DNA of 64,000 bases from a virus. Taxonomy: Duplodnaviria > Caudoviricetes. The translations under genes were made by a program, and so were the position numbers. The stretch's first letter is position 1. Every line of letters begins with the position of its first letter. The stretch covers positions 32,001 to 96,000 of the IMG/VR virus record IMGVR_UViG_3300024331_000007; one strand, given 5' to 3'. Under the pieces are notes generated by a model that was not told the origin of the DNA, ran no database searches, and saw nothing but the letters and a program-made list of their open reading frames with translations. This document shows positions 1,252 to 64,000 of this stretch, one piece after another.

Positions 1252-1356
1252 TTAAAAATAAGTCCTTTGTTTTGAGTTGGTTGGCCCTGACTGAATCGAA
1301 CAGTCATCTCACAGTAATCGGCTGTGGGTATTTTCCATTATACGAAGGGCCAATAA

Positions 1357-1602
1357 TCAATAGTGCAACATTCTCAAAAACTCTTTCATTACAAAGTTGT
1401 ATGCGTCAATCCATGCTTTGTTTTTGTTCGGGCTGCTCTCTTTATTTGTTTCCAGCCATAATCCATTTGTTTTGCCGTTTGACGGAACTAAAATTGAGAA
1501 CCGAGTGCCGATTGTCTCGCACCCGTACGTGTGTAAAATGGCATGGGGATACATTTCCAATACCTTTTTACGTGCATCAATCGCTTTTCTGCTCAGTTTC
1601 AT
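1357..1602 (-). CDS. Hypothetical protein
   Basis: 81-aa ORF in same-strand run. Confidence 0.6.
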   Translation of the reverse strand: MKLSRKAIDARKKVLEMYPHAILHTYGCETIGTRFSILVPSNGKTNGLWLETNKESSPNKNKAWIDAYNFVMKEFLRMLHY

Positions 1603-1765
1603 GGCTTATCTCTCGATAGAATTTCAGCAATCGTTGTAGTCTATTGCTGTCTGATTCTCTGTTGTAAGCATGCCTACAGCTATCAGAACAGAAGCCCCAA
1701 TGATCGGCAAGTTTCCGATTTCTAAAAAATCGTTTAAAACAATACAGGCATCGGTATTTGTACAT
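1577..1765 (-). CDS. Small Zn-finger protein (YRCLYC...FCSDSC)
   Basis: CxxC...FCxxxC pattern; TAAATA 5 nt before the ATG. Confidence 0.6.
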   Translation of the reverse strand: MYKYRCLYCFKRFFRNRKLADHWGFCSDSCRHAYNRESDSNRLQRLLKFYREISHETEQKSD

Positions 1766-1769
1766 ACTA

Positions 1770-1916
1770 CTATTTACAGTGGATGTTGTATTTCCAATGG
1801 TATAAATCTTGACAGTTCCTACAACAAAAACATAACCGAAAAGGAGAATTGATTTTATTCAATTCACTTTTAGGGCCGAGTTTTGTGTAACAGTACAGAC
1901 AACGATATATAGCCAT
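1770..1916 (-). CDS. 48-aa Zn-finger paralog of the downstream gene (not in ORF track)
   Basis: Translates as MAIYRCLYCYTKLGPKSELNKINSPFRLCFCCRNCQDLYHWKYNIHCK; shares YRCLYC and FCxxxC with 1577..1765. Confidence 0.55.
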   Translation of the reverse strand: MAIYRCLYCYTKLGPKSELNKINSPFRLCFCCRNCQDLYHWKYNIHCK

Positions 1917-1924
1917 AATGTTTT

Positions 1925-2004
1925 TGGTAGGCGCGGTTGGATTCGAACCAACGACCTGTTTCTTATCAGGAAACTGCTCTGAAACCGGGCTGAGCTACGC
2001 GCCT
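1925..2004 (-). tRNA. tRNA-Ile(GAU)
   Basis: AGGCGCG/CGCGCCT acceptor, CT-GAT-AA loop, GTTCGAATC, encoded CCA. Confidence 0.92.
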
Positions 2005-2010
2005 ATAAAT

Positions 2011-2085
2011 TGGCTGGGGGTGAAGGATTCGAACCCTCATAGACTGATTCAAAGTCAGTCGTCCTAGCCATTGAACGAACCCCCA
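2011..2085 (-). tRNA. tRNA-Gln(UUG)
   Basis: CTGA-CT-TTG-AA-TCAG arm, T-loop TTCGAAT, CCA. Confidence 0.92.
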
Positions 2086-2092
2086 TTAAATT

Positions 2093-2179
2093 TGGTGGAC
2101 AGTAGAGGATTTGAACCTCTAGTTTTGTTATTTACTACCCTTCAGAGGTAGTGCGTCTGCTCTATTCCGCCAACCGCCC
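2093..2179 (-). tRNA. Class II tRNA with Leu-like body; anticodon loop reads UC-UGA-AG
   Basis: GGGCGGT/ACTGTCC acceptor, A73, GCGGAA..AGACGC D-arm, CTACC/GGTAG stem, 14-nt variable region, CCA. Confidence 0.6.
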
Positions 2180-2193
2180 ATATGTTTCTAAAA

Positions 2194-2281
2194 TGGTACA
2201 CAGGGTAGGAGTTGAACCTACAGGATTTTGGTGTTTGCATCTTCTAAAAATGCTGCGTCTACCGACTTCCGCCACCTGTGT
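2194..2281 (-). tRNA. tRNA-Leu(UAG)
   Basis: ACACAGG/CCTGTGT acceptor, TT-TAG-AA loop, long variable region, A73-CCA. Confidence 0.88.
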
Positions 2282-2569
2282 ATAACCTTTCATTTTCAGA
2301 CTGTAGTACCAATTGTCAGCGCATAAAGATTCAAAGTCTTCTGCTTAATTGCCTGAACAACGAAATAAAAACTTTTTGAAGAAGCCAAACCCTCGAACCT
2401 TCTTCGTGCTGGATTCACCTTATACTACCTTCGCACTTTTGTTGTTTCAAGCGAAGCACCGCCATTCTCCAGTTTCCCTTAATATTTTGTCGATCCTGCT
2501 TTCTGATTTACATCAATGCCTATCTTTTTCAAGTGCCGCTGGTGTGCAGAGGAAACCTCGACAAAATTT

Positions 2570-2644
2570 TGGTAGCGCGTAAGGGAGTCGAACCCTTCTT
2601 CGCAGATTGAAAGTCTACTGTCCTAACCGATAGACGAACACGCC
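2570..2644 (-). tRNA. tRNA-Glu(UUC)
   Basis: CT-TTC-AA loop, TTCGACT T-loop, CCA. Confidence 0.9.
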
Positions 2645-2653
2645 ATATAAACT

Positions 2654-2737
2654 TGGTAACGTAGAAGGGGATCGAACCCTCTTGTCCGAAGACGCCAGAT
2701 TGAAAGTCTGGTGACCTGCCAATTAGTCATCTACGTC
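2654..2737 (-). tRNA. tRNA-Glu(UUC) with extra variable-arm hairpin
   Basis: CCAGA-CT-TTC-AA-TCTGG, variable region CGTCTTCGGACAA, CCA. Confidence 0.8.
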
Positions 2738-2746
2738 ACATAATCT

Positions 2747-2822
2747 TGGTAGTCCCAACGGGATTCGAACCCGTATTTCTTGTCTGAGAAACAAGCTGCC
2801 TAAACCATTAGCTGATAGGACC
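2747..2822 (-). tRNA. tRNA-Glu(CUC)
   Basis: CTTGT-TT-CTC-AG-ACAAG, TTCGAAT, CCA. Confidence 0.88.
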
Positions 2823-2841
2823 ATATTGCTCAATATTTATC

Positions 2842-2943
2842 GGCCCGTAGAAGGTATTGCACCTCCATCCTTCAAGTGGTCCGTAAAAACCAGTATGAAG
2901 GACAATCGCTCCGCAGTTTACGCTACGTTCAATATACGGGACA
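2842..2943 (-). ncRNA. tRNA-like RNA, no assignable anticodon
   Basis: CCCGTA/TACGGG acceptor-like stem, GGAGG-TGCAATA-CCTTC T-arm, extended central arm TCCTTCA/TGAAGGA. Confidence 0.4.
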
Positions 2944-2957
2944 TCTTGTTACTAAAG

Positions 2958-3030
2958 GCCGAGGGCTTGGGATTTCACAAGGTTCCGCGTGGGTCATGAC
3001 TCCCACAGTCGTCTATCCTTCCCTCTTGGC
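2958..3030 (-). ncRNA. Small structured, tRNA-like RNA
   Basis: GCC..GAGGG/CCCTCGGC closing stem, GTGGG/CCCAC and CTTG/CAAG hairpins, located between tRNA genes. Confidence 0.3.
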
Positions 3031-3037
3031 AATAATT

Positions 3038-3111
3038 CGGTAACGGCTGGACTCGAACCATGCGCTGCCCCCTTTAGCGGGGAGTGCTCAACCTGCTACA
3101 CCACAATTACT
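3038..3111 (-). pseudogene. Degenerate tRNA with CUA at the centre of the anticodon loop
   Basis: D-arm GTGT/GCAC, CTCCC-CG-CTA-AA-GGGGG, TGG-TTCGAGT-CCA; weak acceptor, no CCA end. Confidence 0.45.
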
Positions 3112-3217
3112 TACTTTATCGCCTCAACTTTCAAAACTAAACTTTGCTGGATGGTTTGTTCCATCTGTTAGTTGGATGGAGTCCTGACACTGGTTCCAGC
3201 GACCAGTTCAAATATGT

Positions 3218-3302
3218 TGGCAGGGGTGACAGGGATCGAACCTGCTATGAGTTTCCTCGCCAGTTTTGGAGACTGGTGTCGTACCATTACGACTACACCC
3301 CT
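3218..3302 (-). tRNA. tRNA-Trp(CCA) with extra variable-arm hairpin
   Basis: AGGGGTG/CACCCCT, G73, CCAGT-CT-CCA-AA-ACTGG, GAG-GAAA-CTC extra arm. Confidence 0.82.
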
Positions 3303-3312
3303 ATAAAATCTA

Positions 3313-3402
3313 TGGCGGGAGATGAAGGACTTGAACCTTCGGTGTGAGATTTATCTCATTCGGGTTTGGAGTCCGATGCTGTCGCCGCTGAGCCAATCTC
3401 CC
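3313..3402 (-). tRNA. Class II tRNA (Ser-like body) with CCA anticodon
   Basis: GGGAGAT/ATCTCCC, G73, CT-CCA-AA loop, 19-nt variable arm TGAGA-TAAA-TCTCA. Confidence 0.75.
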
Positions 3403-3405
3403 GTA

Positions 3406-3648
3406 TTAACCTTCAAACTTTTCCAGAATTTCCTCACCCATTCCAACTTTGATAAGTTCTTCTGCTCTTGCAATTCCTTTGACTTTTGCCTCTTCCTTGG
3501 TTACGTAACCTTCGGAAAGTATCGTCATTTGAAACCATGCTTTCGGTTTGGCTGTTTTGTAATGACCTCTCAATGCCCATCCCTTTTTGGTATCTGGCGC
3601 ATCGAATGTATAGATCAGGTTAGACCAAAACTCGTCAAACGATTCCAT
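3406..3648 (-). CDS. Hypothetical protein
   Basis: 80-aa ORF within the tRNA cluster. Confidence 0.6.
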   Translation of the reverse strand: MESFDEFWSNLIYTFDAPDTKKGWALRGHYKTAKPKAWFQMTILSEGYVTKEEAKVKGIARAEELIKVGMGEEILEKFEG

Positions 3649-3659
3649 GTGTTTCCTTT

Positions 3660-3791
3660 CTACTTGGTAAGATTATCAAAGAATATCTTCATTTTCTCAA
3701 AATGTTCTTTGCAAAGATTAAATCCTTGCAATTTGTGGTCGCCTGTCTTATTGCATTCTGGTAAATCACAAATCGCGTTCTTCTTTGACAT
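3660..3791 (-). CDS. 43-aa Cys/His protein (not in ORF track)
   Basis: MSKKNAICDLPECNKTGDHKLQGFNLCKEHFEKMKIFFDNLTK with GAGG RBS. Confidence 0.5.
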   Translation of the reverse strand: MSKKNAICDLPECNKTGDHKLQGFNLCKEHFEKMKIFFDNLTK

Positions 3792-3862
3792 AATACCTCT
3801 AAACTTATGGGATAAGGACAATGCGAGTGTCGTTATCCCTGCATCTGTTGAATCATCGCATA

Positions 3863-3934
3863 ACAGGTAAGCAGGAATTGAACCTACTTTTCTGGCTCCA
3901 ATCGCCAGTGTCCTAGCCGATAGACGATTACCCT
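3863..3934 (-). pseudogene. Degenerate Gln-like tRNA (loop GA-TTG-GA, no CCA)
   Basis: Intact D-arm, CTGGC/GCCAG stem and T-arm; A at position 33; 3' CCA absent. Confidence 0.5.
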
Positions 3935-3956
3935 AATTCAACAAACCTAAAACTTT

Positions 3957-3976
3957 TGGCGGTCCCGACGAGATTT
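3957..3976 (-). pseudogene. Orphan 3' fragment of a tRNA (T-stem, acceptor strand, CCA), Asp-like
   Basis: Reads AAAT-CTCGT-CGGGACC-G-CCA and breaks in the T-loop next to the endonuclease gene. Confidence 0.6.
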
Positions 3977-4001
3977 ATTTGGTATTTTGATAAATATTGA
4001 T

Positions 4002-4646
4002 ATGCCCAATACCGCCAATCTCGTTTGTGATTATTGCAATTCAACTTTTGTTAGAACATCTAAAGATATCGCATCATCCCGAATCGCTAATTCTAAATCA
4101 AAATTCTGTTCTCGAACATGTATGGGATTATCCAATATAACAACGAAAACGGTTACGTGTTTACAATGTAACAAACTCTTTCAAAAACAAGCACATCGAA
4201 TTAAAAAATCACCTAATCATTTTTGTGATCGTTCATGCTCAGCCAAATATCACAATGTTCATAAAACTATTGGAACTCGGCGTTCAAAACTTGAAATTTT
4301 TCTGGAATCTAAACTTCGTAAGTCATATCCAGAATTGAAACTCCTGTGCAATGATAAATCTGCCATTAATTCAGAACTCGATTTCTACTTCCCAGAGTTA
4401 CAACTTGCAATAGAATTAAACGGAATACTCCATTTTGAACCCATTTATGGTAATAGCAAACTGACTCAAATTCAATCGAATGATACTAAGAAATCCTTTT
4501 TATGTCATCAGCAGCATATCAATCTTGCTGTTATCGACTGCTCTACATATTCTCATCTAACTGAAAAAGTTAAAAACAAATATTGGAACATTGTTAATAA
4601 CCTTTTAGCAAATATGGCGGGGAATATGGGTAACGATCCCACCTGA
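4002..4646 (+). CDS. Free-standing endonuclease: Zn-finger repeats plus DUF559/Vsr-like PD-(D/E)xK domain
   Basis: Repeated CxxC...FCSRxC; ELDFYFPELQLAIELNGILH; likely start MPNT 5 nt after TAAATA. Confidence 0.75.
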   Translation: MPNTANLVCDYCNSTFVRTSKDIASSRIANSKSKFCSRTCMGLSNITTKTVTCLQCNKLFQKQAHRIKKSPNHFCDRSCSAKYHNVHKTIGTRRSKLEIFLESKLRKSYPELKLLCNDKSAINSELDFYFPELQLAIELNGILHFEPIYGNSKLTQIQSNDTKKSFLCHQQHINLAVIDCSTYSHLTEKVKNKYWNIVNNLLANMAGNMGNDPT

Positions 4647-4694
4647 TATTCCTGATCGACAGTCAGGCAACCACTCCATGCAGTTCCATTCCCC
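4615..4694 (-). tRNA. tRNA-Asp(GUC), divergent T-loop
   Basis: GGGGAAT/ATTCCCC, G73, CCTGA-CT-GTC-GA-TCAGG, T-loop ATCGTTA, CCA; overlaps the endonuclease 3' end. Confidence 0.75.
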
Positions 4695-4708
4695 GTAATT
4701 CTAAAATT

Positions 4709-4783
4709 TGGCTCACCCCCTCAGAGTCGAACTGAGAACCAATGCCTTAACAGGGCACCGCTCTGCCATTGAGCTAGAGGTGA
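4709..4783 (-). tRNA. tRNA-Asn(GUU)
   Basis: TGCC-CT-GTT-AA-GGCA, TTCGACT, GCCA. Confidence 0.9.
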
Positions 4784-4800
4784 ACATTTAAACCGTATTA

Positions 4801-5097
4801 CTAATCTCTATCATACTTTGTTTTCTTGTTGAATACAAAACCTTCTTTTGAAACATGCTCGTATTTACCATCAACTATCTTATACGATGCATCACTTTGA
4901 TCTTCATTCCAGTGTCTATTGCAAACTGGGCAATCAAACTCTATCCAATACGAATCGTCGTTGCGATCCCAATTTCCGCTATTGCCTTTGTACTCTCCAA
5001 CTAAACCTTCGTGTGGACAGTTGTCTTGGATGTGCGCTTCTAATTTTCTAAGTTCGGTAATACTCCATCTCAACTTTTGTAGTTCTTGTATTGTCAT
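4801..5097 (-). CDS. Hypothetical protein (CPH...CPVC)
   Basis: 98-aa ORF. Confidence 0.65.
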   Translation of the reverse strand: MTIQELQKLRWSITELRKLEAHIQDNCPHEGLVGEYKGNSGNWDRNDDSYWIEFDCPVCNRHWNEDQSDASYKIVDGKYEHVSKEGFVFNKKTKYDRD

Positions 5098-5099
5098 AT

Positions 5100-5519
5100 T
5101 TAATCTTTACAAGTAAATTCTAAGTAATCCTTTGCCCAACGAATATGCTTTTGTTGCTTACTTTTTGGTGCAATTAATCTTAATCGAGTTTCATATGTTG
5201 TTGCCTCGTTGACATCAACAAAATAAACTTGATTCAACTCTCTACAGTATACAGCAAATAATTCAATCTGTCCACGATAGTTTTGTTTTTTACCATTTGC
5301 TCTATGAACTGTTGAACTGCACGAATCAAAGCTAACAAATGATTGATCTTTTCCTAATCTACCCGTCTTACACTGAATACGAACAAATACACCATTATTG
5401 TCAACTACTAAATCATACCGGTTTTTATCTCCAAATGGAGTTAATACGGTTTTGCCTAGTTTTAGCAATTCAGCAACTACAACTGCTTGAGTTATATCGC
5501 CTATTTCCTTAGTATTCAT
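5100..5519 (-). CDS. PD-(D/E)xK endonuclease of the group-I-intron-associated type (PDDEXK_5 / I-Ssp6803I-like), free-standing
   Basis: KEIGDITQ...PFGDKNRYDLVVD...RIQCKT; start MNTKE with GGAAG RBS. Confidence 0.8.
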   Translation of the reverse strand: MNTKEIGDITQAVVVAELLKLGKTVLTPFGDKNRYDLVVDNNGVFVRIQCKTGRLGKDQSFVSFDSCSSTVHRANGKKQNYRGQIELFAVYCRELNQVYFVDVNEATTYETRLRLIAPKSKQQKHIRWAKDYLEFTCKD

Positions 5520-5534
5520 TTCTTCCTTTAAAAT

Positions 5535-5609
5535 TGGCTGAACAGGTGGGAGTCGAACCCACATCGTCTTGATTAACAGTCAAGCGTAATGCCGTTATAC
5601 TACCGTTCA
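5535..5609 (-). tRNA. tRNA-Asn(GUU), second copy
   Basis: CTTGA-CT-GTT-AA-TCAAG, TTCGACT, GCCA. Confidence 0.9.
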
Positions 5610-5622
5610 ATAAAACTAAACT

Positions 5623-5698
5623 TGGTGGGCAGCATGGGATTCGAACCCACGTCGATTTGCTTAAGAGGCAAACATAATAGCCGCTATACGAACTGCCC
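5623..5698 (-). tRNA. tRNA-Lys(CUU)
   Basis: TTTGC-CT-CTT-AA-GCAAA, TTCGAAT, ACCA. Confidence 0.9.
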
Positions 5699-5713
5699 AT
5701 TTGAAACTAAACT

Positions 5714-5789
5714 TGGTGCATTCGGAGGGATTTGAACCCCCATCAATTCGATTAAAAGTCGAGTATAATGTCCGTTATACGACGAATGC
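5714..5789 (-). tRNA. tRNA-Lys(UUU)
   Basis: TCGA-CT-TTT-AA-TCGA, TTCAAAT, ACCA. Confidence 0.9.
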
Positions 5790-9216: not shown

Positions 9217-9888
9217 ATGCTTCTACACGAAATCGAAACAATCGACTTCATTTCAAAATCCAACCAAACCTTCAATACCCTCAAAAAAGATTGGGCGGAA
9301 TTGATAAAGAAGTTTCGTCCCTACCTTCTTGGTACTATTAGTGGAAAGTTTAGAATAGGTGCGGTGGATGGGTCATTGAAGGGGACCTCCTCGAATAAAC
9401 TTGTTGCTGTTTATGATCGACAGGCCAATAAATATGCAGCTTTTTTGCAGCTTGAGAAGTTTTCAGCCAGTGCATATGCTGAATCAGTTGTAGCAGCCGA
9501 CCCTGCCTATCGCGGAATCAATCTTCCTGTACAGTTGTATACATTTCTTGTTCAAGAAGAGGGAATGATTATCGTATCCGATGAAGTACAGACGTTGGGT
9601 GCTCGTTCGATATGGGAAAAGTTGGCCAAGACACCCGGTATTGGCGTGTACGGATATAATGACAAAACTGGAAAAGTTTTCCAAGTAGACATGGACGATC
9701 TATTCAATGAAGATGTGTATGACGAGGGTTTGAATCAGGAAATCGAACATCTTGAGAATGAAGAATACGAATTGCAAGACACAAGAGACGAACGATATTT
9801 TCAGATAAAGAAAGAACTTGAAAAGTTATACGATGCTCGTACCGAAACCAATCATCATATTCGCCTGTTCGCCGCGAGGGCAAAGTAA
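9217..9888 (+). CDS. GNAT-like fold protein, paralog 1
   Basis: VAADPAYRGINLPVQLY...SDEVQTLGARSIWEKL; late promoter TAAATA 9196-9201. Confidence 0.6.
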   Translation: MLLHEIETIDFISKSNQTFNTLKKDWAELIKKFRPYLLGTISGKFRIGAVDGSLKGTSSNKLVAVYDRQANKYAAFLQLEKFSASAYAESVVAADPAYRGINLPVQLYTFLVQEEGMIIVSDEVQTLGARSIWEKLAKTPGIGVYGYNDKTGKVFQVDMDDLFNEDVYDEGLNQEIEHLENEEYELQDTRDERYFQIKKELEKLYDARTETNHHIRLFAARAK

Positions 9889-10613
9889 TGTTGCTTACTG
9901 AGATTGGTCATGCGGGTCATGTAAGAAAAAACGGCGGAATGTTTGCCGAAATTATGCATGATTACATCTCTTTTAGCAACCGCCACAATAAAAAATATAA
10001 TGTGGAAGGAAAAATCGGTCGATTTGAAATTCGTAGCCTGCGAGTGAAACCATTTTCTTCTACTTATCTTTACTATACCTTATTTGACACTAAAAGAAAT
10101 TGTTATGCCGCCGCCGTTACACTGGATCAATTTGGTAGAAATGCTCGAAGTTGGCAGGTTGCTTCGTTGGGTGTCGAGACTGAATATCAGGGGATGAATT
10201 TATCAGTTATGATGTATTCGTGGATGATAACGAAAAATAATTTAATTTTAATAACTGGCATGGAACAATCTGCTGGAGGTAAATTGGTTTGGGAGAGGCT
10301 TGCACAAGTACCCGGAATTTTTATATTTGGTTACGATGTGGAGGATAAAAAGTCATTTCAAGTTGACCAAAATGATTTATTTAATGAAGATGTGTATGCT
10401 GACGAACTAATTAATGAAAGAGATTATTTAGAAAAAGAGTATAACCGAATAGAAAATCAGTTGGATAATTTAGACCCTGATGTTGTTCCAGAATCTAAAA
10501 TAAAAGCTCTGGAAAAAACAATGAACGATTTGTCCGCGCAGATAAACTCACTGGATACTGATATCACAAAAGTAGAAGATTATATTCGTCTTGTCGCAAT
10601 AAAAAAGCATTGA
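9888..10613 (+). CDS. GNAT-like fold protein, paralog 2
   Basis: GVETEYQGMNLSVMMY...EQSAGGKLVWERL; shares FQVDxxDLFNEDVY with paralog 1. Confidence 0.6.
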   Translation: MLLTEIGHAGHVRKNGGMFAEIMHDYISFSNRHNKKYNVEGKIGRFEIRSLRVKPFSSTYLYYTLFDTKRNCYAAAVTLDQFGRNARSWQVASLGVETEYQGMNLSVMMYSWMITKNNLILITGMEQSAGGKLVWERLAQVPGIFIFGYDVEDKKSFQVDQNDLFNEDVYADELINERDYLEKEYNRIENQLDNLDPDVVPESKIKALEKTMNDLSAQINSLDTDITKVEDYIRLVAIKKH

Positions 10614-10877: not shown

Positions 10878-10953
10878 GGCGGATATAGTTCAATGGCAGA
10901 ACGCTTGCCTGTGGCGCAAGTTGTTGAGGGTTCGAGTCCCTCTATCCGCCCCA
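10878..10953 (+). tRNA. tRNA-His(GUG)
   Basis: G-1:C73, CTTGC-CT-GTG-GC-GCAAG, TTCGAGT, CCA. Confidence 0.92.
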
Positions 10954-14388: not shown

Positions 14389-14390
14389 AG

Positions 14391-14414
14391 AAGGCCGCTT
14401 AGCGGCCTTTCTTT
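14391..14414. terminator. Bidirectional terminator
   Basis: AAGGCCGC-TTA-GCGGCCTT between convergent genes. Confidence 0.8.
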
Positions 14415-15673
14415 TGCTTTGTAATTTCTGCTTTCTCAGGTAGGAAGACTTCCAGATGATCTGATGAGTATGTTGGGAATCCTTGTTCTGCTGGATTCGC
14501 TTTTACACCAAAGGCTTTATAAGAATCAAATGCTACCATGCTTTTATTCGCTGCTTTGGCCCACGCTTTCAAGTCCGTCCATAGATACCAACCGCTACCA
14601 AGATCATTTTCACCTTCATGTGGAGAAATGTGGCTGTAGATCGGCCCGTCCCACCAAAATGTTTTTGGTCGCATCTTGTCCTTCAATTTTTCCGATGCTT
14701 TTTCACGCAAATCCCAAAGATGTTGATATGCTTCTCTGAAATCTTCGTCTTTGTCTCTGCCTTCTGCTTGTGCTTTATCATATGTGGCTCGTATTGCATC
14801 ACTTCTTAAGTCAGCAGGTAGCAATGGTTCAATCTTATGATGCGCAAAGAACATATCGAACGCTGGATATGGAAATGCCCACATGCCGCGATTTACAGGA
14901 GGCTTTCGAATGATTATGTTTTGCTTTTGAGCATTAATAGGGCCGATGCGCTGCATAAGTAATGCCCCTTTCTTGAATCGGAAGTCTGTTTTCTTTGTGA
15001 ACTTGTTAGTTGATTCCTTCATATTATTTTTTGGTCTTAAATCTAACCAATATTGACCACCTCTATATTTGACTGGGTATCTCTGGCTTAATCTATCCCA
15101 CGCTTTTTCAGCATCAGGCGATACTCTGTGCCTAAAATCAGATGTTAAATATTTTCGGTTTCGTTTACGGGCCTCGGTAATTGCCCTCTCATATAGTAAT
15201 TGTCCAAGTCCAGTTCCTCGCCACGCATCATCAATATGAATACGTCGGATTTGTAAACTGTCCCATTTATCAACGTTATCAGGGTTTGTATCTCCAGTAG
15301 ATGAAAAGGTAGAGGCGTCTAACCAACCGGGTGATTTATTTGGATCAAATCTGTCCGTCTGATCGAAGTAGGTCATTATTTCTAAGCTAAAGTCTCCGCT
15401 TCTGACCTTCCAACTGAGTTTGGAAAGTTCCTCTTCGCGATTATTGTATCTTGAGTAATTAAAATCTGGAGATTCAGTTATCTTTCCATTTGAACGCAGA
15501 AAAGGCGGGCGTCCACCCTTGCCAAGTTTGAAGTTGAATTTTGCAGCGTGTTTTACGTCTTCACCGGGATGTATATCACAGGTAATAGCCATCATGAAGC
15601 GAGGATCGTGTGCCTCTTCTTCCGTTTGGGGGATGTAACCTCCCCCTTCCGTAATAAATTCAGATGCTCTCAT
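14399..15673 (-). CDS. Multi-domain late protein with central GNAT acetyltransferase-like domain
   Basis: N-terminal MRASEFITE; IHIDDAWRGTGLGQLLYERAI...SPDAEKAW. Confidence 0.7.
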   Translation of the reverse strand: MRASEFITEGGGYIPQTEEEAHDPRFMMAITCDIHPGEDVKHAAKFNFKLGKGGRPPFLRSNGKITESPDFNYSRYNNREEELSKLSWKVRSGDFSLEIMTYFDQTDRFDPNKSPGWLDASTFSSTGDTNPDNVDKWDSLQIRRIHIDDAWRGTGLGQLLYERAITEARKRNRKYLTSDFRHRVSPDAEKAWDRLSQRYPVKYRGGQYWLDLRPKNNMKESTNKFTKKTDFRFKKGALLMQRIGPINAQKQNIIIRKPPVNRGMWAFPYPAFDMFFAHHKIEPLLPADLRSDAIRATYDKAQAEGRDKDEDFREAYQHLWDLREKASEKLKDKMRPKTFWWDGPIYSHISPHEGENDLGSGWYLWTDLKAWAKAANKSMVAFDSYKAFGVKANPAEQGFPTYSSDHLEVFLPEKAEITKQKKGR

Positions 15674-15939
15674 TAGAATGGCATATCTTCGTTGTCGGGA
15701 ATTTTGTTTGGCTCAGGTTTGTGAAGCCAGTAATCACGCACGAGGGTATTGAACTCAGCAAACGACATGTTGCCAGAATGTATCCAGCCCCAAATAAGTT
15801 TCATGGCTTCAGTGTTGCCCATGCCCTTGATTTTATTGAAGCGGCGTTCATAGTCTGGATCGCCAACAAACGGTCTTGCCTTATCAACACCATATGCTTC
15901 GTTGATACCGCTCAGTTTCTTTAATTCATCTAGGTTCAT
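15673..15939 (-). CDS. Hypothetical late protein
   Basis: MNLDELKKLSGINE...; TAATG overlap with the next gene. Confidence 0.7.
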   Translation of the reverse strand: MNLDELKKLSGINEAYGVDKARPFVGDPDYERRFNKIKGMGNTEAMKLIWGWIHSGNMSFAEFNTLVRDYWLHKPEPNKIPDNEDMPF

Positions 15940-15949
15940 AGTAAATTCC

Positions 15950-16744
15950 TTATGCGCGATGGAAATCTTTTTTGGCGGCAACGTCATCAATTTGTCCATT
16001 TAGTTTGAAATTGATGTAGCTGTCTGTTATGAAATGATCAACAGCGGCCTTAATCTGTTGTTGATCGAATTGAGGTACGATTCTATCCTTATAGATGCCC
16101 ATTGCAATGACATCGCGCAAAGCATTGCCAATTCGGTTGTCAAATTCAACCACACCATGCTGTTTGCCATATTTCTTTGCATATCTGTCCAGAACGGCAT
16201 CAGTGTAGCTGGTGAGAGTTTGCTTTGGGGTTTCCTCTTGCTTCTTTGAAAACCACGCTTCGTTTATTGTCACTTCATTAATCTTCATAAGTTCTTGAAC
16301 CTCATTCTCATTTAGTCGTCTAGTTAGGCTTCTTGCTATTTCCGAAGTAAACGGATACGTCTTGATAATTTGTGCTGGCGAAACAGGCTGATCCATCTTT
16401 AACCACATACCCTTTCTACCAAACTGAGTAAGTGGATCGTTGTTGTCCTGTTCCCATTTCTGATTACTTCTAAAAAATTCAACTACGGATATTTTACCGC
16501 TTCCCATCTCACTATTGAAGCCCCAGTCCATTCTTGCCGCGCCACGTAAGGCATCTAATTCATGATCGTAACAATAAATTTCACCAGAACCATACCGTTT
16601 CTTGCTTCCCGATTGAACCCAATTCGTTGTATTCATCAATGTGATTCCCTTCTTTTTAATTGAAGGAATCTTTGATGTATGGGTTACGTGATACAGAACA
16701 TCAGTTGGTTTTGCATCCTCACAAATAATCTCGCGTAGTCTCAT
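15950..16744 (-). CDS. ADP-ribosyltransferase-fold (Tpt1/DarT-like) domain protein
   Basis: MRLREIICE start; LYHVTHTSKIPSIKKKGI, GEIYC, VSPAQI. Confidence 0.55.
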   Translation of the reverse strand: MRLREIICEDAKPTDVLYHVTHTSKIPSIKKKGITLMNTTNWVQSGSKKRYGSGEIYCYDHELDALRGAARMDWGFNSEMGSGKISVVEFFRSNQKWEQDNNDPLTQFGRKGMWLKMDQPVSPAQIIKTYPFTSEIARSLTRRLNENEVQELMKINEVTINEAWFSKKQEETPKQTLTSYTDAVLDRYAKKYGKQHGVVEFDNRIGNALRDVIAMGIYKDRIVPQFDQQQIKAAVDHFITDSYINFKLNGQIDDVAAKKDFHRA

Positions 16745-16820
16745 GCCAGCTTCCTTAACCAATGAATGCACTGTTTCAGAAAAACCATAGCTAAAAGTAA
16801 TAGCTTTGTCATATTAAGCC

Positions 16821-18077
16821 TTAGTGGAACATCAAATACGTTCCGATAACGGATGGGTCTGTCGCACTGATATCGCCTTCACCGGGGAATACTGTTACAT
16901 TCCAACGTGGTTTGTCGCCTAGTGTCTTTGCCATCTTTTTCTGCATAAATTCATCGTATGAAATGATAGAATCCATTGGAATTGCAAAATGCTTCGCAAG
17001 ACGCTCCTTCAAAATGTCAAAGGAATGTGCATCTTTAACTTGTGTAGCTCCCGAAGGACTCTTAACTAGCTTTCCGCCCTGCTTAAGAACCAAATCATCA
17101 AACATGGACTTTGGAACAACTTGGATGTGCTTACGGGCTTCTGGTCCCTTAATATTAACCAGCCTGCTCTGTGTTGACAATGCGCCAGCACTGAAGTTAA
17201 GAATGAAGTTTTCTGGCTTGTTTGGATCGTTGGCTACGCTGGCAACCTTTGTATAAGCGTAGAACAGATTGTCTGGAAATTCTCTTGCAACTGCCCATGC
17301 CATGTTCATATATTCAGGACTGAAAAAGTCTCCTGAATCGTGGAAACGAATGGCAACCTTGACATCGATTGGACCTTCTTCAGTCTTACCTGTCTTGCTT
17401 TTTGCTGAGAACTTATCCCAATATGCAATGGCCTTCGAAATTTCGTTGGATAATTCAGCCGCAAAACCCTGTGGATCGTTCAATAGATAATTCAAAGTTT
17501 GGGTCTGCTTCATGAAAACGTCTGGATATTGAATGTAACTGCCCTTCATAGCGTAACAGAATGTTTTGCAAGCGCCAGCACCGGGACAAGTATCAACAAT
17601 TACAAACTCGCCAGTTTGCTCATTCACAGCCAAACCTTTCAAAGCAGGTAGACCAACGTTGTAATATTGATCAGCGGTTCCGTTGCTGTGCTTCATTTTC
17701 TCGTTCTTCTTCAACAAGCTGCTTGGGCGCTTCATGATTTCTTTCTTGAGAGCTTCCAAGTCATAATCCTGACCATTTTGATTCTTAATCTTGATCTTCT
17801 TGTCATGGATGTATGGCATTGTATATGGATCAAGTTTGGTTTTGTTCTTGGTTCGAATGCGATTGAGATAATCCTGCATTTCTGGATCACTGGCAACTCT
17901 CGTTCTTGCACCAGAGGCAAAATCAGCTTCGTCGAGGATGCTTTCGTCCAGACCTTCGTCGCTAATTTCATCGGCTTCTTTGTTATCTTTTGGATAGCCT
18001 TTTTCGACAAAACGGTCAATATCAATAATAGTGAGGCCGTTCAGCTTGTTTTCAACGATAAACTCTTCAAAACGCAT
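16821..18077 (-). CDS. GP88-like (radical-SAM-like Cys motif) protein
   Basis: CPGAGACKTFCYAMKG, RFHDSGDFFS, FYAYTK; MRFEEFIVE start. Confidence 0.7.
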   Translation of the reverse strand: MRFEEFIVENKLNGLTIIDIDRFVEKGYPKDNKEADEISDEGLDESILDEADFASGARTRVASDPEMQDYLNRIRTKNKTKLDPYTMPYIHDKKIKIKNQNGQDYDLEALKKEIMKRPSSLLKKNEKMKHSNGTADQYYNVGLPALKGLAVNEQTGEFVIVDTCPGAGACKTFCYAMKGSYIQYPDVFMKQTQTLNYLLNDPQGFAAELSNEISKAIAYWDKFSAKSKTGKTEEGPIDVKVAIRFHDSGDFFSPEYMNMAWAVAREFPDNLFYAYTKVASVANDPNKPENFILNFSAGALSTQSRLVNIKGPEARKHIQVVPKSMFDDLVLKQGGKLVKSPSGATQVKDAHSFDILKERLAKHFAIPMDSIISYDEFMQKKMAKTLGDKPRWNVTVFPGEGDISATDPSVIGTYLMFH

Positions 18078-18106: not shown

Positions 18107-18112
18107 TATTTA
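18107..18112 (-). promoter_or_regulatory. T4-like late promoter (TAAATA) for the 14.4-18.1 kb operon
   Basis: CATAAATA upstream of the operon; divergent TAAATA near 18141. Confidence 0.65.
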
Positions 18113-18165
18113 TGCAGTTACATAAAAGTAAGGCATTGTTATAAATACGGTATCGAGGAAATCAT

Positions 18166-18578: not shown

Positions 18579-18649
18579 TAAATACAGAGTGCGATTCGCG
18601 GTGCTACAACACCCAATCGCCCTAACACTGATGTGGAGTGTCAGCTATG
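18579..18649 (+). promoter_or_regulatory. Conserved structured leader of homing endonuclease gene (copy A)
   Basis: TAAATA, two hairpins, RBS in the second; covaries with copies at 52.7 and 59.3 kb. Confidence 0.75.
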
Positions 18650-19294
18650 TCTATTTACATATCTAAGTTTTCTCACGACAAGAAGTTCTATGTCTATGAA
18701 TATCTGCGTCTTAATAAATCAATGCATGGTAATGTCGGAACTCCATACTATGTCGGAAAGGGCACAAGAAAGCGACTTTACGAAAAACACCAAAAAGGAA
18801 TTTCAGTTCCAAACGAAACCGAAAGAATACTAATCGTGGCAAATAATATGAATGAGGCAGATGCATTTCAACTTGAAATGTTGTTAATTTATTTGTATGG
18901 GAGAATTGATCTCGGAACTGGGTGTTTACGAAATAAAACTTTTGGTGGTGATGGCACTTTTGGTTTACTTGTAACACAAGAAGCAAAAAGAAAACAATCA
19001 TTAGCTAAATTGGGAACTAAACATTCCGAAGCAACTAAAAAGAAGATGGCAGATACGCGGAAAGGAGAAAAGAACACCTTTTTCGGTAAATCACATTCAG
19101 ATCAAAGTAAAAAGATGATTTCCAAAAATAATGGAAAAGGTCAAGCAAAAGTAACTCCAGATCAAGTAAGGGAAATACGTCGATTATATGCTGAAACAGA
19201 TATGACACAACGCCAAATCGGACAAATTTTTCACATTGCAGAATCAACCACCAATCAAATAATCGTCAAAAGATGGTGGAAAGACATAGATTAA
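18647..19294 (+). CDS. GIY-YIG homing endonuclease with NUMOD3 repeats and C-terminal HTH
   Basis: FYVYEY...PYYVGKG, YGRIDLGTGCLRNKTFGGDG, KHSEATKKKM. Confidence 0.88.
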   Translation: MSIYISKFSHDKKFYVYEYLRLNKSMHGNVGTPYYVGKGTRKRLYEKHQKGISVPNETERILIVANNMNEADAFQLEMLLIYLYGRIDLGTGCLRNKTFGGDGTFGLLVTQEAKRKQSLAKLGTKHSEATKKKMADTRKGEKNTFFGKSHSDQSKKMISKNNGKGQAKVTPDQVREIRRLYAETDMTQRQIGQIFHIAESTTNQIIVKRWWKDID

Positions 19295-42534: not shown

Positions 42535-43119
42535 ATGAAAGTTGCAGAACTATTTGAGGGTGTGAACACCAATATTCTCGTTGTTGATGTTCAACCGGGA
42601 TACCGCCATCATTGTAATCGTATTGCTGGAAAGGTTTGCAATCTGCTAAACCAGCAATCAGGCAAGAAAGTTGTAATGTTCAACAGCGAAGAATTGACCA
42701 ACGACACGCTTGAGGATGTTCAGCAATACTACATGGATTATGACTTGGACCCTGAGTTGATTGAAGACGGTTCCATCAAGTTTGTGGAGAAGGAATATGC
42801 ATTTTTTCGAGATTGGATGGATAATGGTATTAGCGACCATATAATCATTAAAGTAGTCCGAGCAATGGTAATGCAAAGGGTTAATAGTAGTGAAGATTTA
42901 GATTTATCAGACATATTATATGAAGATGAACTTGAACAAGTTGATGATTTGGAAGGCGGCGCTATTTATTTACCATATTGGGCCAATATTGCCGAATTGA
43001 AACAACTGAGTCCGTTTTACATGTGTGGCGGTGGTCGTAAAGAGTGTCTGCGAGAAATCGAGCTAATCTGCAACGCATTCAACATTAGATACAAACGAAT
43101 AGATTCACTTATATATTAA
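42535..43119 (+). CDS. Isochorismatase/cysteine-hydrolase-like fold protein
   Basis: ILVVDVQP near the N-terminus, CGGGRKECL near the C-terminus. Confidence 0.5.
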   Translation: MKVAELFEGVNTNILVVDVQPGYRHHCNRIAGKVCNLLNQQSGKKVVMFNSEELTNDTLEDVQQYYMDYDLDPELIEDGSIKFVEKEYAFFRDWMDNGISDHIIIKVVRAMVMQRVNSSEDLDLSDILYEDELEQVDDLEGGAIYLPYWANIAELKQLSPFYMCGGGRKECLREIELICNAFNIRYKRIDSLIY

Positions 43120-51457: not shown

Positions 51458-52069
51458 ATGAAAAAGTTCAGCGAATTTTTGGCGGAAAGTGTCCGTAATT
51501 ACGAGTATAATGTCAAGTTGGCTTTCAAGCCTGACAATGAAATGATGGGTGCAATCGAAAACGCATTGCAGAAGTACAGCCTTGTGTCGATTACCGCACC
51601 AAAAAGTCTCCCAATCCAGCGCGTTGACAAGGACTTTCCCGGCTTCAAAGCTCCAGAAACCTATGTGTTCACCGTTGAACTTGCATACCCTTCCAGCGCA
51701 AACATGATTCGCCACACCATCGCCTCGGTTGGTTTCCAGTTTGAACAGGTTGCCGTTAGCTCACCTCAGCATGACGCCAGCATGGATAAGGAAGATAATG
51801 ATGTTGCTGCAAATACCAGCGACAAAGCATTACTTGATCGCCCATATGATCCACAGAACAACGAAGAAATCAGCGGTGAGAATTTCGGCGATAATTATAA
51901 TGATCGTCTAGTTAAGAACAGCATCGGCAGCACAGATCAGATGATACCTCGCGAATTTAAGCGCACAAATGGCAAAACTTTGAACGATAAAGAATTTAAA
52001 ATTGGCAAGGAGTCTGCTGTGGGGTCTAAACAGAATAAGATTCCTCCTGTGAAGTCTTTTGCTCGTTAA
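51458..52069 (+). CDS. Late protein with T4 CTS-like N-terminus (MKKFSEFLAE)
   Basis: TAAATA plus GAGG RBS; start matches the MKTYQEFIAE pattern. Confidence 0.7.
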   Translation: MKKFSEFLAESVRNYEYNVKLAFKPDNEMMGAIENALQKYSLVSITAPKSLPIQRVDKDFPGFKAPETYVFTVELAYPSSANMIRHTIASVGFQFEQVAVSSPQHDASMDKEDNDVAANTSDKALLDRPYDPQNNEEISGENFGDNYNDRLVKNSIGSTDQMIPREFKRTNGKTLNDKEFKIGKESAVGSKQNKIPPVKSFAR

Positions 52070-52712
52070 ATTTTTGCAAGCGAATTGCGCGGTTTCTTTT
52101 TGAATTAGGATTATTTTCGCCTATAAAATTAGCACGAAGTCGAGCTTTGTATTCATCCGAATGAGTTTTGCCGAACATTGGATTTTTATGGCCAATTTTA
52201 CTGTCGGATATTTTCTTTTTGGCTGCATCCGTTCGTTTTTGTCCAGTTCTCGATTTGGACATTTTCTTACGAGTTCCTTCAGAAAATTTCATTCCTTTTG
52301 TTGTGGCAATTGGTTTCTTTCCTTTCTTAACATCTGACATCTTTTTCTTAGCCACCGCGCTCATGGTTTTTCCTATAGCCGATTCTCGCATTTTTCTTTT
52401 AGTTTCTTCAGAATGTTTCCATCCACTTATTCCTTGACCGCCATTTGTTCTATTTCTTAGACAGCCAGTTCCTAAATCAAGTCTACCAAAAATTCTAATA
52501 AGGGCTATTTCTAGCGAACAGGCTTCTTTATTTGATAAACCATCAAAAATCTTGAGTATAAATTTTTTGTCTTTTGGTGGTTTAGCTCCACAATTGGTAT
52601 GTGGATGATGTGTTCTATATTTCTTTCCTTTACCAATATAATAAGGTGTTCCTGCCTCTCCGTTTGGTGAAGAGTGCTCTCTTAGGTAAGCATACACATA
52701 ATAAATAGACAT
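52026..52712 (-). CDS. GIY-YIG homing endonuclease with NUMOD3 repeats
   Basis: YYVYAY..PYYIGKG, FGRLDLGTGCLRNRTNGG, KHSEETKRKM. Confidence 0.9.
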   Translation of the reverse strand: MSIYYVYAYLREHSSPNGEAGTPYYIGKGKKYRTHHPHTNCGAKPPKDKKFILKIFDGLSNKEACSLEIALIRIFGRLDLGTGCLRNRTNGGQGISGWKHSEETKRKMRESAIGKTMSAVAKKKMSDVKKGKKPIATTKGMKFSEGTRKKMSKSRTGQKRTDAAKKKISDSKIGHKNPMFGKTHSDEYKARLRANFIGENNPNSKRNRAIRLQKFNEQKTSQEESYSV

Positions 52713-63358: not shown

Positions 63359-64000
63359 TCATTCTTTAGATAGATTTTGATAATATAGCCTGACAGCCTT
63401 GCTCAGCTTTCGTTTAGTTTCTTCAGTCTGAGCTATTCCTTTGTTCCAAGGAACTCTTCCTTTAGTAGCCTCGGAAATTTTAGTTTTAGTATCTGTTGAG
63501 TGAGATATGCCTAAATTCCAAGGAGTTGAACCTGTCTTTGAGGTAGAAATTTTTTGTTTTGTATTTTCTGACAGTATTCTACCAGCCAATGATTTTGCTA
63601 GTTTATTTCTAGTTTCGGCTGAAACCATCTTACCTTTATGAGTTTTGCTGATCTTTCTTCTACCCTGTTCTGTTATTGGTTTTCTATATTTCACCGACTC
63701 TTGTATTTTTCGTCTAGTTTCAATGGAGGGATTTTTTAGACCTTCACCGCCATCTGTTCTATTTTGCAAACAGCCAGTTCCCAAATCTACACGTCCGAAT
63801 TTTGCAATCTGTTTAATCTCCTCAGTTAGTGCGTCGTTTTCGTTTAAATTAGTAGACAGAAATACAATGTTGGACTTATCTGAAAGTGGAGATACTCTAT
63901 GTTGATTACTAAATGCTCTGTTGCCTTTTCCCTTGCCTATATAATATGGAGTTCCAATATTACCATTGTTGCTATTCTTAGTTCGTAGATAAGCGTATAC
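63359..64000 (-). CDS. GIY-YIG/NUMOD3 homing endonuclease (5' end outside window)
   Basis: VYAYLR..TPYYIGKG read in frame from the window edge; GTGCLQNRTDGG. Confidence 0.85.
   Translation of the reverse strand, partial: VYAYLRTKNSNNGNIGTPYYIGKGKGNRAFSNQHRVSPLSDKSNIVFLSTNLNENDALTEEIKQIAKFGRVDLGTGCLQNRTDGGEGLKNPSIETRRKIQESVKYRKPITEQGRRKISKTHKGKMVSAETRNKLAKSLAGRILSENTKQKISTSKTGSTPWNLGISHSTDTKTKISEATKGRVPWNKGIAQTEETKRKLSKAVRLYYQNLSKE

Follow-up and report, generated by a model that had tools for sequence, protein, structure and literature searches.

A putative late operon of a Rak2-like jumbo phage encodes enzyme-type proteins with leaders resembling the T4 capsid-targeting sequence

The operon and its four genes

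We analysed a stretch of 64,000 nucleotides (nt) of phage DNA (the window), which comprises bases 32001-96000 of a single 359,890-bp IMG/VR virus record. The record is the genome of an uncultured, Rak2-like jumbo phage of ~360 kb. We focused on a minus-strand operon of the window, which the original prediction had described as a late operon of candidate injected enzymes whose N-termini resemble the capsid-targeting sequence (CTS) of phage T4. Positions refer to the window unless they are marked as genome positions, and a slash within a peptide marks a predicted cut site or the corresponding position.

We observed that positions 18113-14390 of the minus strand form a single unit made up of an ATAAATA motif, four genes and a terminator. 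The features are as follows.

18107..18113 (-): late-promoter-like ATAAATA, 29 nt before the start of gene 1
16821..18077 (-): gene 1, 418 amino acids (aa), leader MRFEEFIVE, GP88-family domain
18051..18077 (-): leader of gene 1, residues 1-9, predicted cut I-V-E/N
17928..17951 (-): predicted maturation sites L-D-E/S and L-D-E/A of gene 1 (residues 43-51), just ahead of the core
15950..16744 (-): gene 2, 264 aa, leader MRLREIICE, ADP-ribosyltransferase (ART)-fold domain and a helical C-terminal module
16259..16288 (-): putative fossil leader MKINEVTINE/A, residues 153-162 of gene 2, at the fusion point of its two modules
15673..15939 (-): gene 3, 88 aa, leader MNLDELKKLSGINE/A, function not assigned
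14399..15673 (-): gene 4, 424 aa, leader MRASEFITE/G, three modules
15014..15472 (-): GNAT module of gene 4, between K-I-T-E/S and M-K-E/S, motif A RGTGLGQ
14402..15013 (-): module 3 of gene 4, conserved, matched by no Pfam model
14390..14410 (both strands): bidirectional intrinsic terminator closing the operon, a GC-rich hairpin of 8-9 bp followed by a T-run

The start of gene 2 is an ATG behind an AAGGA ribosome-binding site. For gene 3, a longer open reading frame starting at 15999 was rejected, and we took instead the ATG at 15939, which stands 8 nt after an AAGGA and 10 nt past the stop of gene 2. A megablast search of the operon against cultured phages gave no match.

The ATAAATA motif was found within 40 nt upstream of predicted genes 40 times on the sense strand and 8 times in the opposite orientation (a ratio of ~5). 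It also precedes the gene for the S77 protease (see below) and two genes whose giant products have 2644 and 1689 aa, while the variants GTAAATA and CTAAATA precede portal, scaffold and tube genes. This match to a consensus motif suggests that the operon would be expressed late, together with the head genes. The late promoters claimed earlier are partly borne out: the motif was seen 29, 16 and 15 nt upstream of the genes starting at 18077 (gene 1), 51458 and 9217, but it was absent before the gene at 42535.

The identification of gene 1 as a GP88 family member was correct, as the Pfam model GP88 (PF17338) matched residues 121-319 with 105.7 bits against a cut-off of 24.4. In the AlphaFold model of this protein, residues 1-55 are disordered, with a predicted local distance difference test score (pLDDT) below 50, and form a propeptide-like stretch of ~50 residues. 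Across 31 sequences, three cysteines (C164, C170 and C174, spaced Cys-x5-Cys-x3-Cys) do not vary, and neither does an H-D-x-G-D motif. The fold neighbours of the model were GP88 proteins only, plus weak radical-SAM/TIM-barrel rows, and Foldseek found no match to the model in the PDB at E <= 0.001. The radical-SAM/TIM-barrel fold was not accepted, as these rows were too weak for an assignment. Gene 1, of which the genome has one copy, probably encodes a metal or iron-sulfur (Fe-S) enzyme, to which no reaction was assigned.

The ART fold proposed for gene 2 was also borne out. The domain spans approximately residues 12-150 (model pLDDT 80), and Foldseek matched it to Tpt1/KptA with an E value of 7e-5 (VIA Z 10.2); the other rows were mostly ART-superfamily enzymes, and the structural matches also list DarT, Arr and ADP-ribosylating toxin domains. 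Residues 12-146 have a fold (Z 10.2 to KptA) like that of the H-type enzymes Tpt1/KptA, DarT and Arr, with a Y-H-x-T motif opening the first strand. Besides H19 in this motif, R50 and several Asp residues do not vary. We rejected gene 2 as a Tpt1/KptA orthologue, since it has a single lobe of ~140 residues and the Pfam model PTS_2-RNA matched below cut-off, with an E value of 0.097. The domain matches only the C-terminal lobe of Tpt1 (chain residues 91-180), and, unlike Tpt1, gene 2 has the NAD-binding lobe without the N-terminal RNA-binding lobe.

Gene 4 is made up of module 1 (residues 10-67), the GNAT module (residues 68-220) and module 3 (residues 221-424). When a profile of the GNAT paralogues was compared with the PDB, the named hits were solely GNAT-type acetyltransferases (best E value 9.6e-4), in agreement with the earlier call. 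The Pfam GNAT models remained below their cut-offs on the gene 4 module (E values of 0.003-0.014), and homologous modules of the phage Tunturi_5, described below, pass Pfam at 1e-16. Module 1 (GGGYIPQ...) was considered as an InPase, and this was left aside because the Pfam InPase model gives no match. No hydrolase was found in the operon, where the original prediction had placed "other hydrolases".

Module 3 gave nothing in Pfam up to E = 5. It has 182 representative relatives (E <= 0.001), mostly stand-alone proteins of ~180 aa with the family motifs RGxWAFPYP, FWW and DHLE(V/L)F(L/I)P, and its mean column identity to two relatives, L003 and L005, is 77%. One member of the family, P0025, is headed by MRILELTE/S. 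Leads from the Atlas towards ART-PolyVal/AcrIF11, at scores of just 0.80-0.83, were not confirmed.

Leaders, linkers and their conservation

We observed that the N-termini quoted in the original prediction were all present, at 18077, 16744 and 15673 on the minus strand and at 51458, 42535, 9217 and 9888 on the plus strand. All four operon products have a leader ending in hydrophobic-x-Glu (MRFEEFIVE, MRLREIICE, MNLDELKKLSGINE and MRASEFITE). To evaluate these leaders we used a tight pattern, ^M[KR]x(2,3)E[FI][IL]xE, and the 518 genes predicted in the genome by a simple scheme of codon usage and ribosome-binding sites. The pattern was found at 5 of the 518 N-termini, namely those of operon genes 1, 2 and 4, of the window gene at 51458 (MKKFSEFLAE) and of a gene at genome 269985 (MRISEIINE). 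The number expected from the internal frequency was 0.02, shuffling of residues 2-13 also gave a mean of 0.02, and the pattern did not occur at any internal Met. Chance is ruled out for the tight pattern. It was written post hoc; an independent template is the sequence MKTYQEFIAE of the T4 internal proteins IPII and IPIII, taken from the T4 record. A somewhat looser leader pattern was observed 8 times against 0.84 expected. A very loose N-terminal hydrophobic-x-Glu pattern showed no enrichment (9 against 5.6 in shuffles) and was dropped, so that only the tight class is counted as evidence.

The leader-bearing proteins have no mutual similarity outside the leader. The codons of the window leaders vary (CGT/AGA, GAA/GAG, ATC/ATT), and orthologues that are 40-75% identical keep the pattern with other residues, which indicates selection on the peptide. 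MKKFSEFLAE retains F4, F7, L8 and E10 of the T4 CTS, and the 9-residue leaders are the same series minus one residue. In the T4 CTS, positions 4 and 7 matter most in targeting, and positions 8 and 10 in processing (PMC9026906).

As a positive control, we applied the tight and loose patterns to the 260 genes of T4 predicted by the same scheme, and they picked only IPII, IPIII, gp24 (MAKINELLRE), Alt (MELITELFDE) and gp61.1. All of these except gp61.1 are established gp21 substrates (PMC5694885). The gp61.1 gene (NC_000866, 18966-19130) encodes a hypothetical protein of 54 aa starting with MKTFKEFIKE, a near copy of the T4 CTS, and the T4 record assigns it no virion role. When the 9-residue tight leader was written as a fixed DNA pattern, we obtained one likely chance hit in the Rak2-like phage CBB and none in Vibrio phage 2.275.O, T4 or Tunturi_5; the T4 leaders have 10 residues and are recovered by the protein-level patterns. 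The best reading of the operon leaders, M-(K/R)-x-x-E-(F/I)-I-x-E or an extended form of it, is that they would be the counterpart of the T4 capsid-targeting sequence.

We further searched IMG/VR and protein databases for relatives, and obtained orthologues of gene 4 at 3 loci and of gene 1 at 69 loci, along with 7 relatives of the ART-fold domain. The GP88 orthologues begin with leaders such as MRFTEVIAE, MRAWEILET, MKIHEIITE, MALRQFRHFISE/G, MNFRKLIKLVTE/G, MNIVELME/G and MKITDLLLE/S, the gene 4 orthologues with MKANEFINE and MRAYELIE/S, and the ART-fold homologues with MKIKELLIE, MKIIEVITE and MLSFLEFLAE. The ART-fold homologue P0003, which is unrelated to gene 3, is headed by MNINELKKLSGI, that is, by the leader type of gene 3. 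All five of the long contigs with such GP88 genes that were tested encode an S77 protease.

The internal motifs noticed earlier are also there: LDE/S at residues 43-46 of gene 1, INE/A at 160-163 of gene 2, and ITE/S at 65-68 and MKE/S at 218-221 of gene 4. Gene 1 has a second such site, LDE/A, at residues 48-51. They had been described as falling between domains, and we found that the hydrophobic-x-Glu sites coincide exactly with the module borders.

The same coincidence was seen across the relatives. In three paralogues the GNAT module, starting SPDF.Y, is preceded by KITE/, by MKE/ or by the leader MLLRELFE/. The paralogue at genome 326956 lies within a 527-aa protein, where SPD(Y/F)GY comes straight after HMKE/, while the one at genome 328542 is a stand-alone gene, in which the leader MLLRELFE/ is followed at once by SPDFGY. 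In L003 and L005, gene 4 is without the GNAT module, and KITE/S or KISE/S leads directly into module 3; these orthologues have an extra C-terminal module behind VIE/S or ITE/S. The two modules of gene 2 are separate genes in L003 (4384-4812 and 4822-5148), the second of which begins with MKIIEVISE, and an INEVTI-like element is also present between the modules of a gene at genome 325244.

In the GP88 orthologues (50 distinct sequences), the N-terminal part before the core is non-homologous and varies from 5 to ~770 residues. A site [FILMV]-x-E-[AGS] stands 35-42 residues before the invariant P-Y-I-H in 36 of the 50, where 0.009 per protein is expected, and the remaining 14 have V-D-E-E or L-x-E-[WM] in the same register. 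The sequence switches from unrelated to conserved exactly at this Glu site, which argues for a boundary. Leader and inter-module linker thus appear, from these comparisons, to be interchangeable, and this is the strongest new evidence.

Since modules do move (GNAT as an insertion, gene 2 by fusion or splitting, and GP88 with its varying N-terminal modules), the leader/linker could be mainly a recombination joint for module shuffling that has no targeting role. We consider this very unlikely, as the conservation is in the peptide and not in the DNA, and the motif fits a protease specificity; shuffling and targeting are, moreover, mutually compatible. Slightly more improbable still is that a modifying enzyme recognises the shared leader as its tag, in the manner of the leaders of ribosomally synthesized and post-translationally modified peptides (RiPPs). 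The enzyme would possibly be the GP88 domain, which has the invariant Cys-x5-Cys-x3-Cys and the weak radical-SAM structural rows, and whose gene adjoins leader-bearing genes. However, GP88 itself bears the leader, and it is single-copy, whereas leader genes are present at at least 4 other loci, 34 to 280 kb off. The leader also ends in a protease motif that recurs at internal module borders.

Head genes, other leader-bearing genes and the case for packaging

The head module of the genome is of the T4 type, and genes for tail sheath, tube and terminase are also present. The features outside the operon that bear on packaging are as follows.

genome 356927-357574: prohead protease, Peptidase_S77 (gp21-family), PF03420, 85.5 bits
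genome 1851-3035: major capsid protein, gp23-family, PF07068, 317.9 bits
51458..52069 (+): separate putative late gene, 203 aa, leader MKKFSEFLAE/S, the nearest match to the T4 CTS, ATAAATA 16 nt upstream
9217..10613 (+): two paralogous genes with the starts MLLHEIE and MLLTEIG, weak leader candidates
42535..43119 (+): gene starting MKVAELFE/G, weak candidate, no ATAAATA upstream, no family match

The S77 protease has 34% identity to T4 gp21. The capsid protein shares 67-71% identity with its counterparts in Rak2-like GAP32, CBB, Serratia BF and Vibrio phage 2.275.O, and it keeps an L-x-E/[AS] site (LRE/AATAGS here, LRE/S in CBB and LME/S in the Vibrio phage) that aligns just upstream of the cut region of T4 gp23 (LTE/A). 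Because this site is kept, it is plausible that cleavage follows Glu in (L/I)-x-E here, as is the rule in T4. The head module also contains a portal gene and a gene in the scaffold position (genome 748-1833), and CTS-like starts are found among its proteins (MKTLSELMTD and MNITEMFQE). A complex prediction for the scaffold-position protein with residues 1-56 of the GP88-like protein gave a score of 0.00, which is no verdict and counts neither way. For the head-module proteins encoded between protease and scaffold, PHROGs yielded no functional assignment.

Among the related starts that had been listed elsewhere in the window, the one at 51458 is a strong match, and those at 9217, 9888 and 42535 are weak candidates, since the loose hydrophobic-x-Glu pattern is not enriched. 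A detachable leader at 9217 and 9888 is also doubtful because the start of a relative, MRLNEIDSINFI, aligns within the domain. The 51458 protein matches PHROG 14802, a virion structural protein. In phage PA5oct, the annotation of its homologue names a structural protein detected with electrospray ionization tandem mass spectrometry (ESI-MS/MS).

From the leaders, the module borders and the head genes, we consider it fairly probable that the operon products are prohead-targeted, protease-trimmed cargo enzymes. Their delivery into the host appears somewhat less probable than this. The leader would dock the new protein onto the prohead scaffolding core, and the gp21-family prohead protease would cut after Glu at the hydrophobic-x-Glu sites, thereby stripping the leader and splitting multi-module proteins at their linkers. 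The mature enzymes may then stay in the capsid with the DNA, exit at infection and act on host targets ahead of any phage gene expression. The mature set would contain the GP88-family domain of metal/Fe-S type, the ART-fold domain, the GNAT acetyltransferase module and two modules of unassigned function. We infer the docking, cleavage, head retention, ejection and targets, with ejection following the example that T4 sets with its internal proteins and Alt. A further point in favour of packaging is a published report of bubblegram imaging in the Rak2-like phage 121Q (PMC7247149).

Several points weigh against this interpretation. Hydrophobic-x-Glu is a short motif, its very loose N-terminal form is not enriched, and two such sites are found inside folded domains (ITEA at 165 and FREA at 312). 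The register of the Glu site in GP88 is fixed, and the site could therefore belong to the fold. No Glu in the ART-fold domain is invariant as a catalytic residue among 9 sequences, and activity as an enzyme can therefore not be taken for granted. Packaging, moreover, does not imply ejection. The PA5oct homologue of the 51458 protein starts with MKSFRDYYDAS, which has no Glu, and gene 51458 itself is situated among tail genes. The two cultured Rak2-like phages scanned, CBB and Vibrio phage 2.275.O, have essentially no tight-leader hits, and the signal has therefore never been observed working in the Rak2-like clade. The T4-like leader would thus be a trait of an uncultured sublineage and not of all Rak2-like phages.

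An alternative is that the products are late cytoplasmic enzymes that are not packaged. The shared N-terminus would then be some general feature, for instance an element for translation or stability, or a small amphipathic helix, and the Glu residues at the borders would be ordinary acidic linkers. Apart from the missing enrichment of the loose motif, this would fit the GP88 proteins of Streptomyces and Mycobacterium phages, which have no leader, start directly at the domain and are encoded among small non-structural genes, and it would fit the module 3 relatives, most of which are stand-alone and without a leader. We nevertheless think it unlikely. The tight pattern stands at ~250 times expectation, the T4 scan picks known gp21 substrates, and the peptide pattern is kept despite codon variation. 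One and the same module is also found following either a leader or an internal x-E/ site, and the leaders co-occur with S77 proteases.

The leader might also target the virion but not the DNA-filled head (for example as a tail or baseplate propeptide), or the products might be head-internal structural or scaffold parts that are degraded and not delivered. In favour of this, gene 51458, which matches the CTS best, is placed among tail genes, and virion structural protein is the only annotation of its family. This is, in our estimate, a little less likely than unpackaged enzymes, as the operon products have enzyme folds (ART, GNAT and GP88), unlike scaffold, and the T4 precedent for such a leader on an enzyme is Alt, which is packaged and injected (PMC5512222).

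Further loci with similar starts were seen outside the window. A second cargo-like locus (genome 324702-329482) encodes proteins starting with MKISEVE and with MKIREVIE/S, the latter with a weak ART-PolyVal match, as well as a nucleotidyltransferase-like protein that ends in GNAT behind MKE/S, and a stand-alone GNAT behind MLLRELFE/S. At genome 268410-271870 there is a divergent pair of genes (268410/269985) with ATAAATA on both sides and the leaders MKYHQLLE/A and MRISEIINE/G, and the next gene starts with MIIE/S; no family match was obtained for either gene of the pair.

The head module, at genome 352-360 kb and 0-3 kb, is interrupted by two glycosyltransferase-like genes and a GIY-YIG gene, which stand between the portal, acidic core protein, S77 protease and scaffold/capsid genes. 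The end of the record falls within a 282-aa gene starting MKTLSELMTD. Approximately 15 paralogues of the GIY-YIG homing endonuclease are spread across the genome (e.g. window 18638-19294, 52026-52712 and 63359-64000), with starts such as MSIYYVYAYLR and most with ATAAATA ~60 nt upstream. The window also has 17 tRNA genes (1278-5789 and 10879-10953), 16 of them in one minus-strand cluster in which several anticodons (Ile, Glu, Trp, Gln and Asn) are duplicated.

Comparison with known packaging systems

It has already been proposed that the CTS lets T4-like phages take in varied proteins (PMC9026906; PMC3012670). Like the T4 CTS/gp21 system, the phage described here has leaders of 9-14 residues that follow the MKTYQEFIAE pattern and end in (I/L)-x-E. 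It also shares a protease of the gp21 family, a capsid protein of the gp23 type, and genes that their motif suggests to be late. As with Alt in T4, the predicted cargo includes an ART-fold enzyme, and, as in the polymorphic internal-protein sets of the T-even phages, unrelated proteins share the leader only (PMC3012670). Unlike T4, this is a 360-kb Rak2-like jumbo phage outside Straboviridae. Its predicted cargo also differs, being made up of GP88, a Tpt1-like ART fold unrelated to the R-S-E type of Alt, GNAT and uncharacterised modules. Several of the predicted cargo proteins are, furthermore, multi-module proteins with leader-like sites between the modules.

Packaging and injection have been predicted for polyvalent proteins (Iyer et al. 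2017, PMC5512222). The operon resembles them in having ART, GNAT and GP88, which stand beside InPase/NUDIX in the polyvalent repertoire, and domain shuffling is heavy in both. With respect to polyvalent architecture, gene 4 comprises three modules and gene 2 two, with a type assigned for the GNAT and ART modules only. We saw no MuF, portal (fusion) or MPTase domain in the operon proteins. Unlike in polyvalent proteins, the domains are mostly separate genes here, each with its own leader, and the predicted processing would be by the prohead protease at x-E/ linkers and not by an embedded metallopeptidase. In the Tunturiibacter phage Tunturi_5 (PP885688, 224392-230271) the same domains are kept fused, without Glu junctions, and the GNAT module starts at RVA/SPDFDY. 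There, gp272 is a fusion of InPase and GP88 annotated as 'minor head protein', and gp273 is a polyvalent protein of 1489 aa with NUDIX, three ART-PolyVal and GNAT modules, annotated as 'MutT/NUDIX hydrolase'. Tunturi_5 gave no match for an S77 protease.

Many head-internal proteins of phiKZ, 201phi2-1 and SPN3US, which include inner-body proteins, are cut after Glu (by gp175/gp245) and have redundant propeptide sites, and the paralogues among the phiKZ-type ejection proteins share N-terminal residues (PMC5694885; PMC9026906). Those phages use S/A/G-x-E or A-x-E and propeptides of more than 100 residues, whereas we find the hydrophobic-x-E motif and short leaders, both of T4 type.

In our literature search, we found no paper tying Rak2-like phages to a CTS. 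What appears to be new here, on the best available reading of these sequences, is that T4-type leaders and protease joints organise polyvalent-type enzyme modules in a Rak2-like jumbo phage. We also suggest, tentatively and with more doubt than for the packaging itself, that the leader doubles as a linker, so that any module could be loaded into the head either as a gene with its own leader or as a bead that is cut apart in the capsid. Fusion and fission at leaders, together with insertion at x-E/S, would then amount to a plug-and-play recruitment of polyvalent-type domains to a T4-type head, yielding a co-injected enzyme kit.

If the packaging of these proteins is true, the capsid-targeting logic of T4, which is experimentally known only in T-even phages, would reach the Rak2-like jumbo phages, and it would be tied to the polyvalent repertoire, whose route into the virion is largely predicted and not shown. 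In genomes with an S77 protease gene, the combination of a leader and hydrophobic-x-Glu joints would then flag candidate injected effectors in uncultured phages. Such candidates would take in families that have been without a role, namely GP88, the Tpt1-like ART fold and the ~180-residue family of module 3. The leaders may also serve as portable tags for putting foreign proteins into large capsids.

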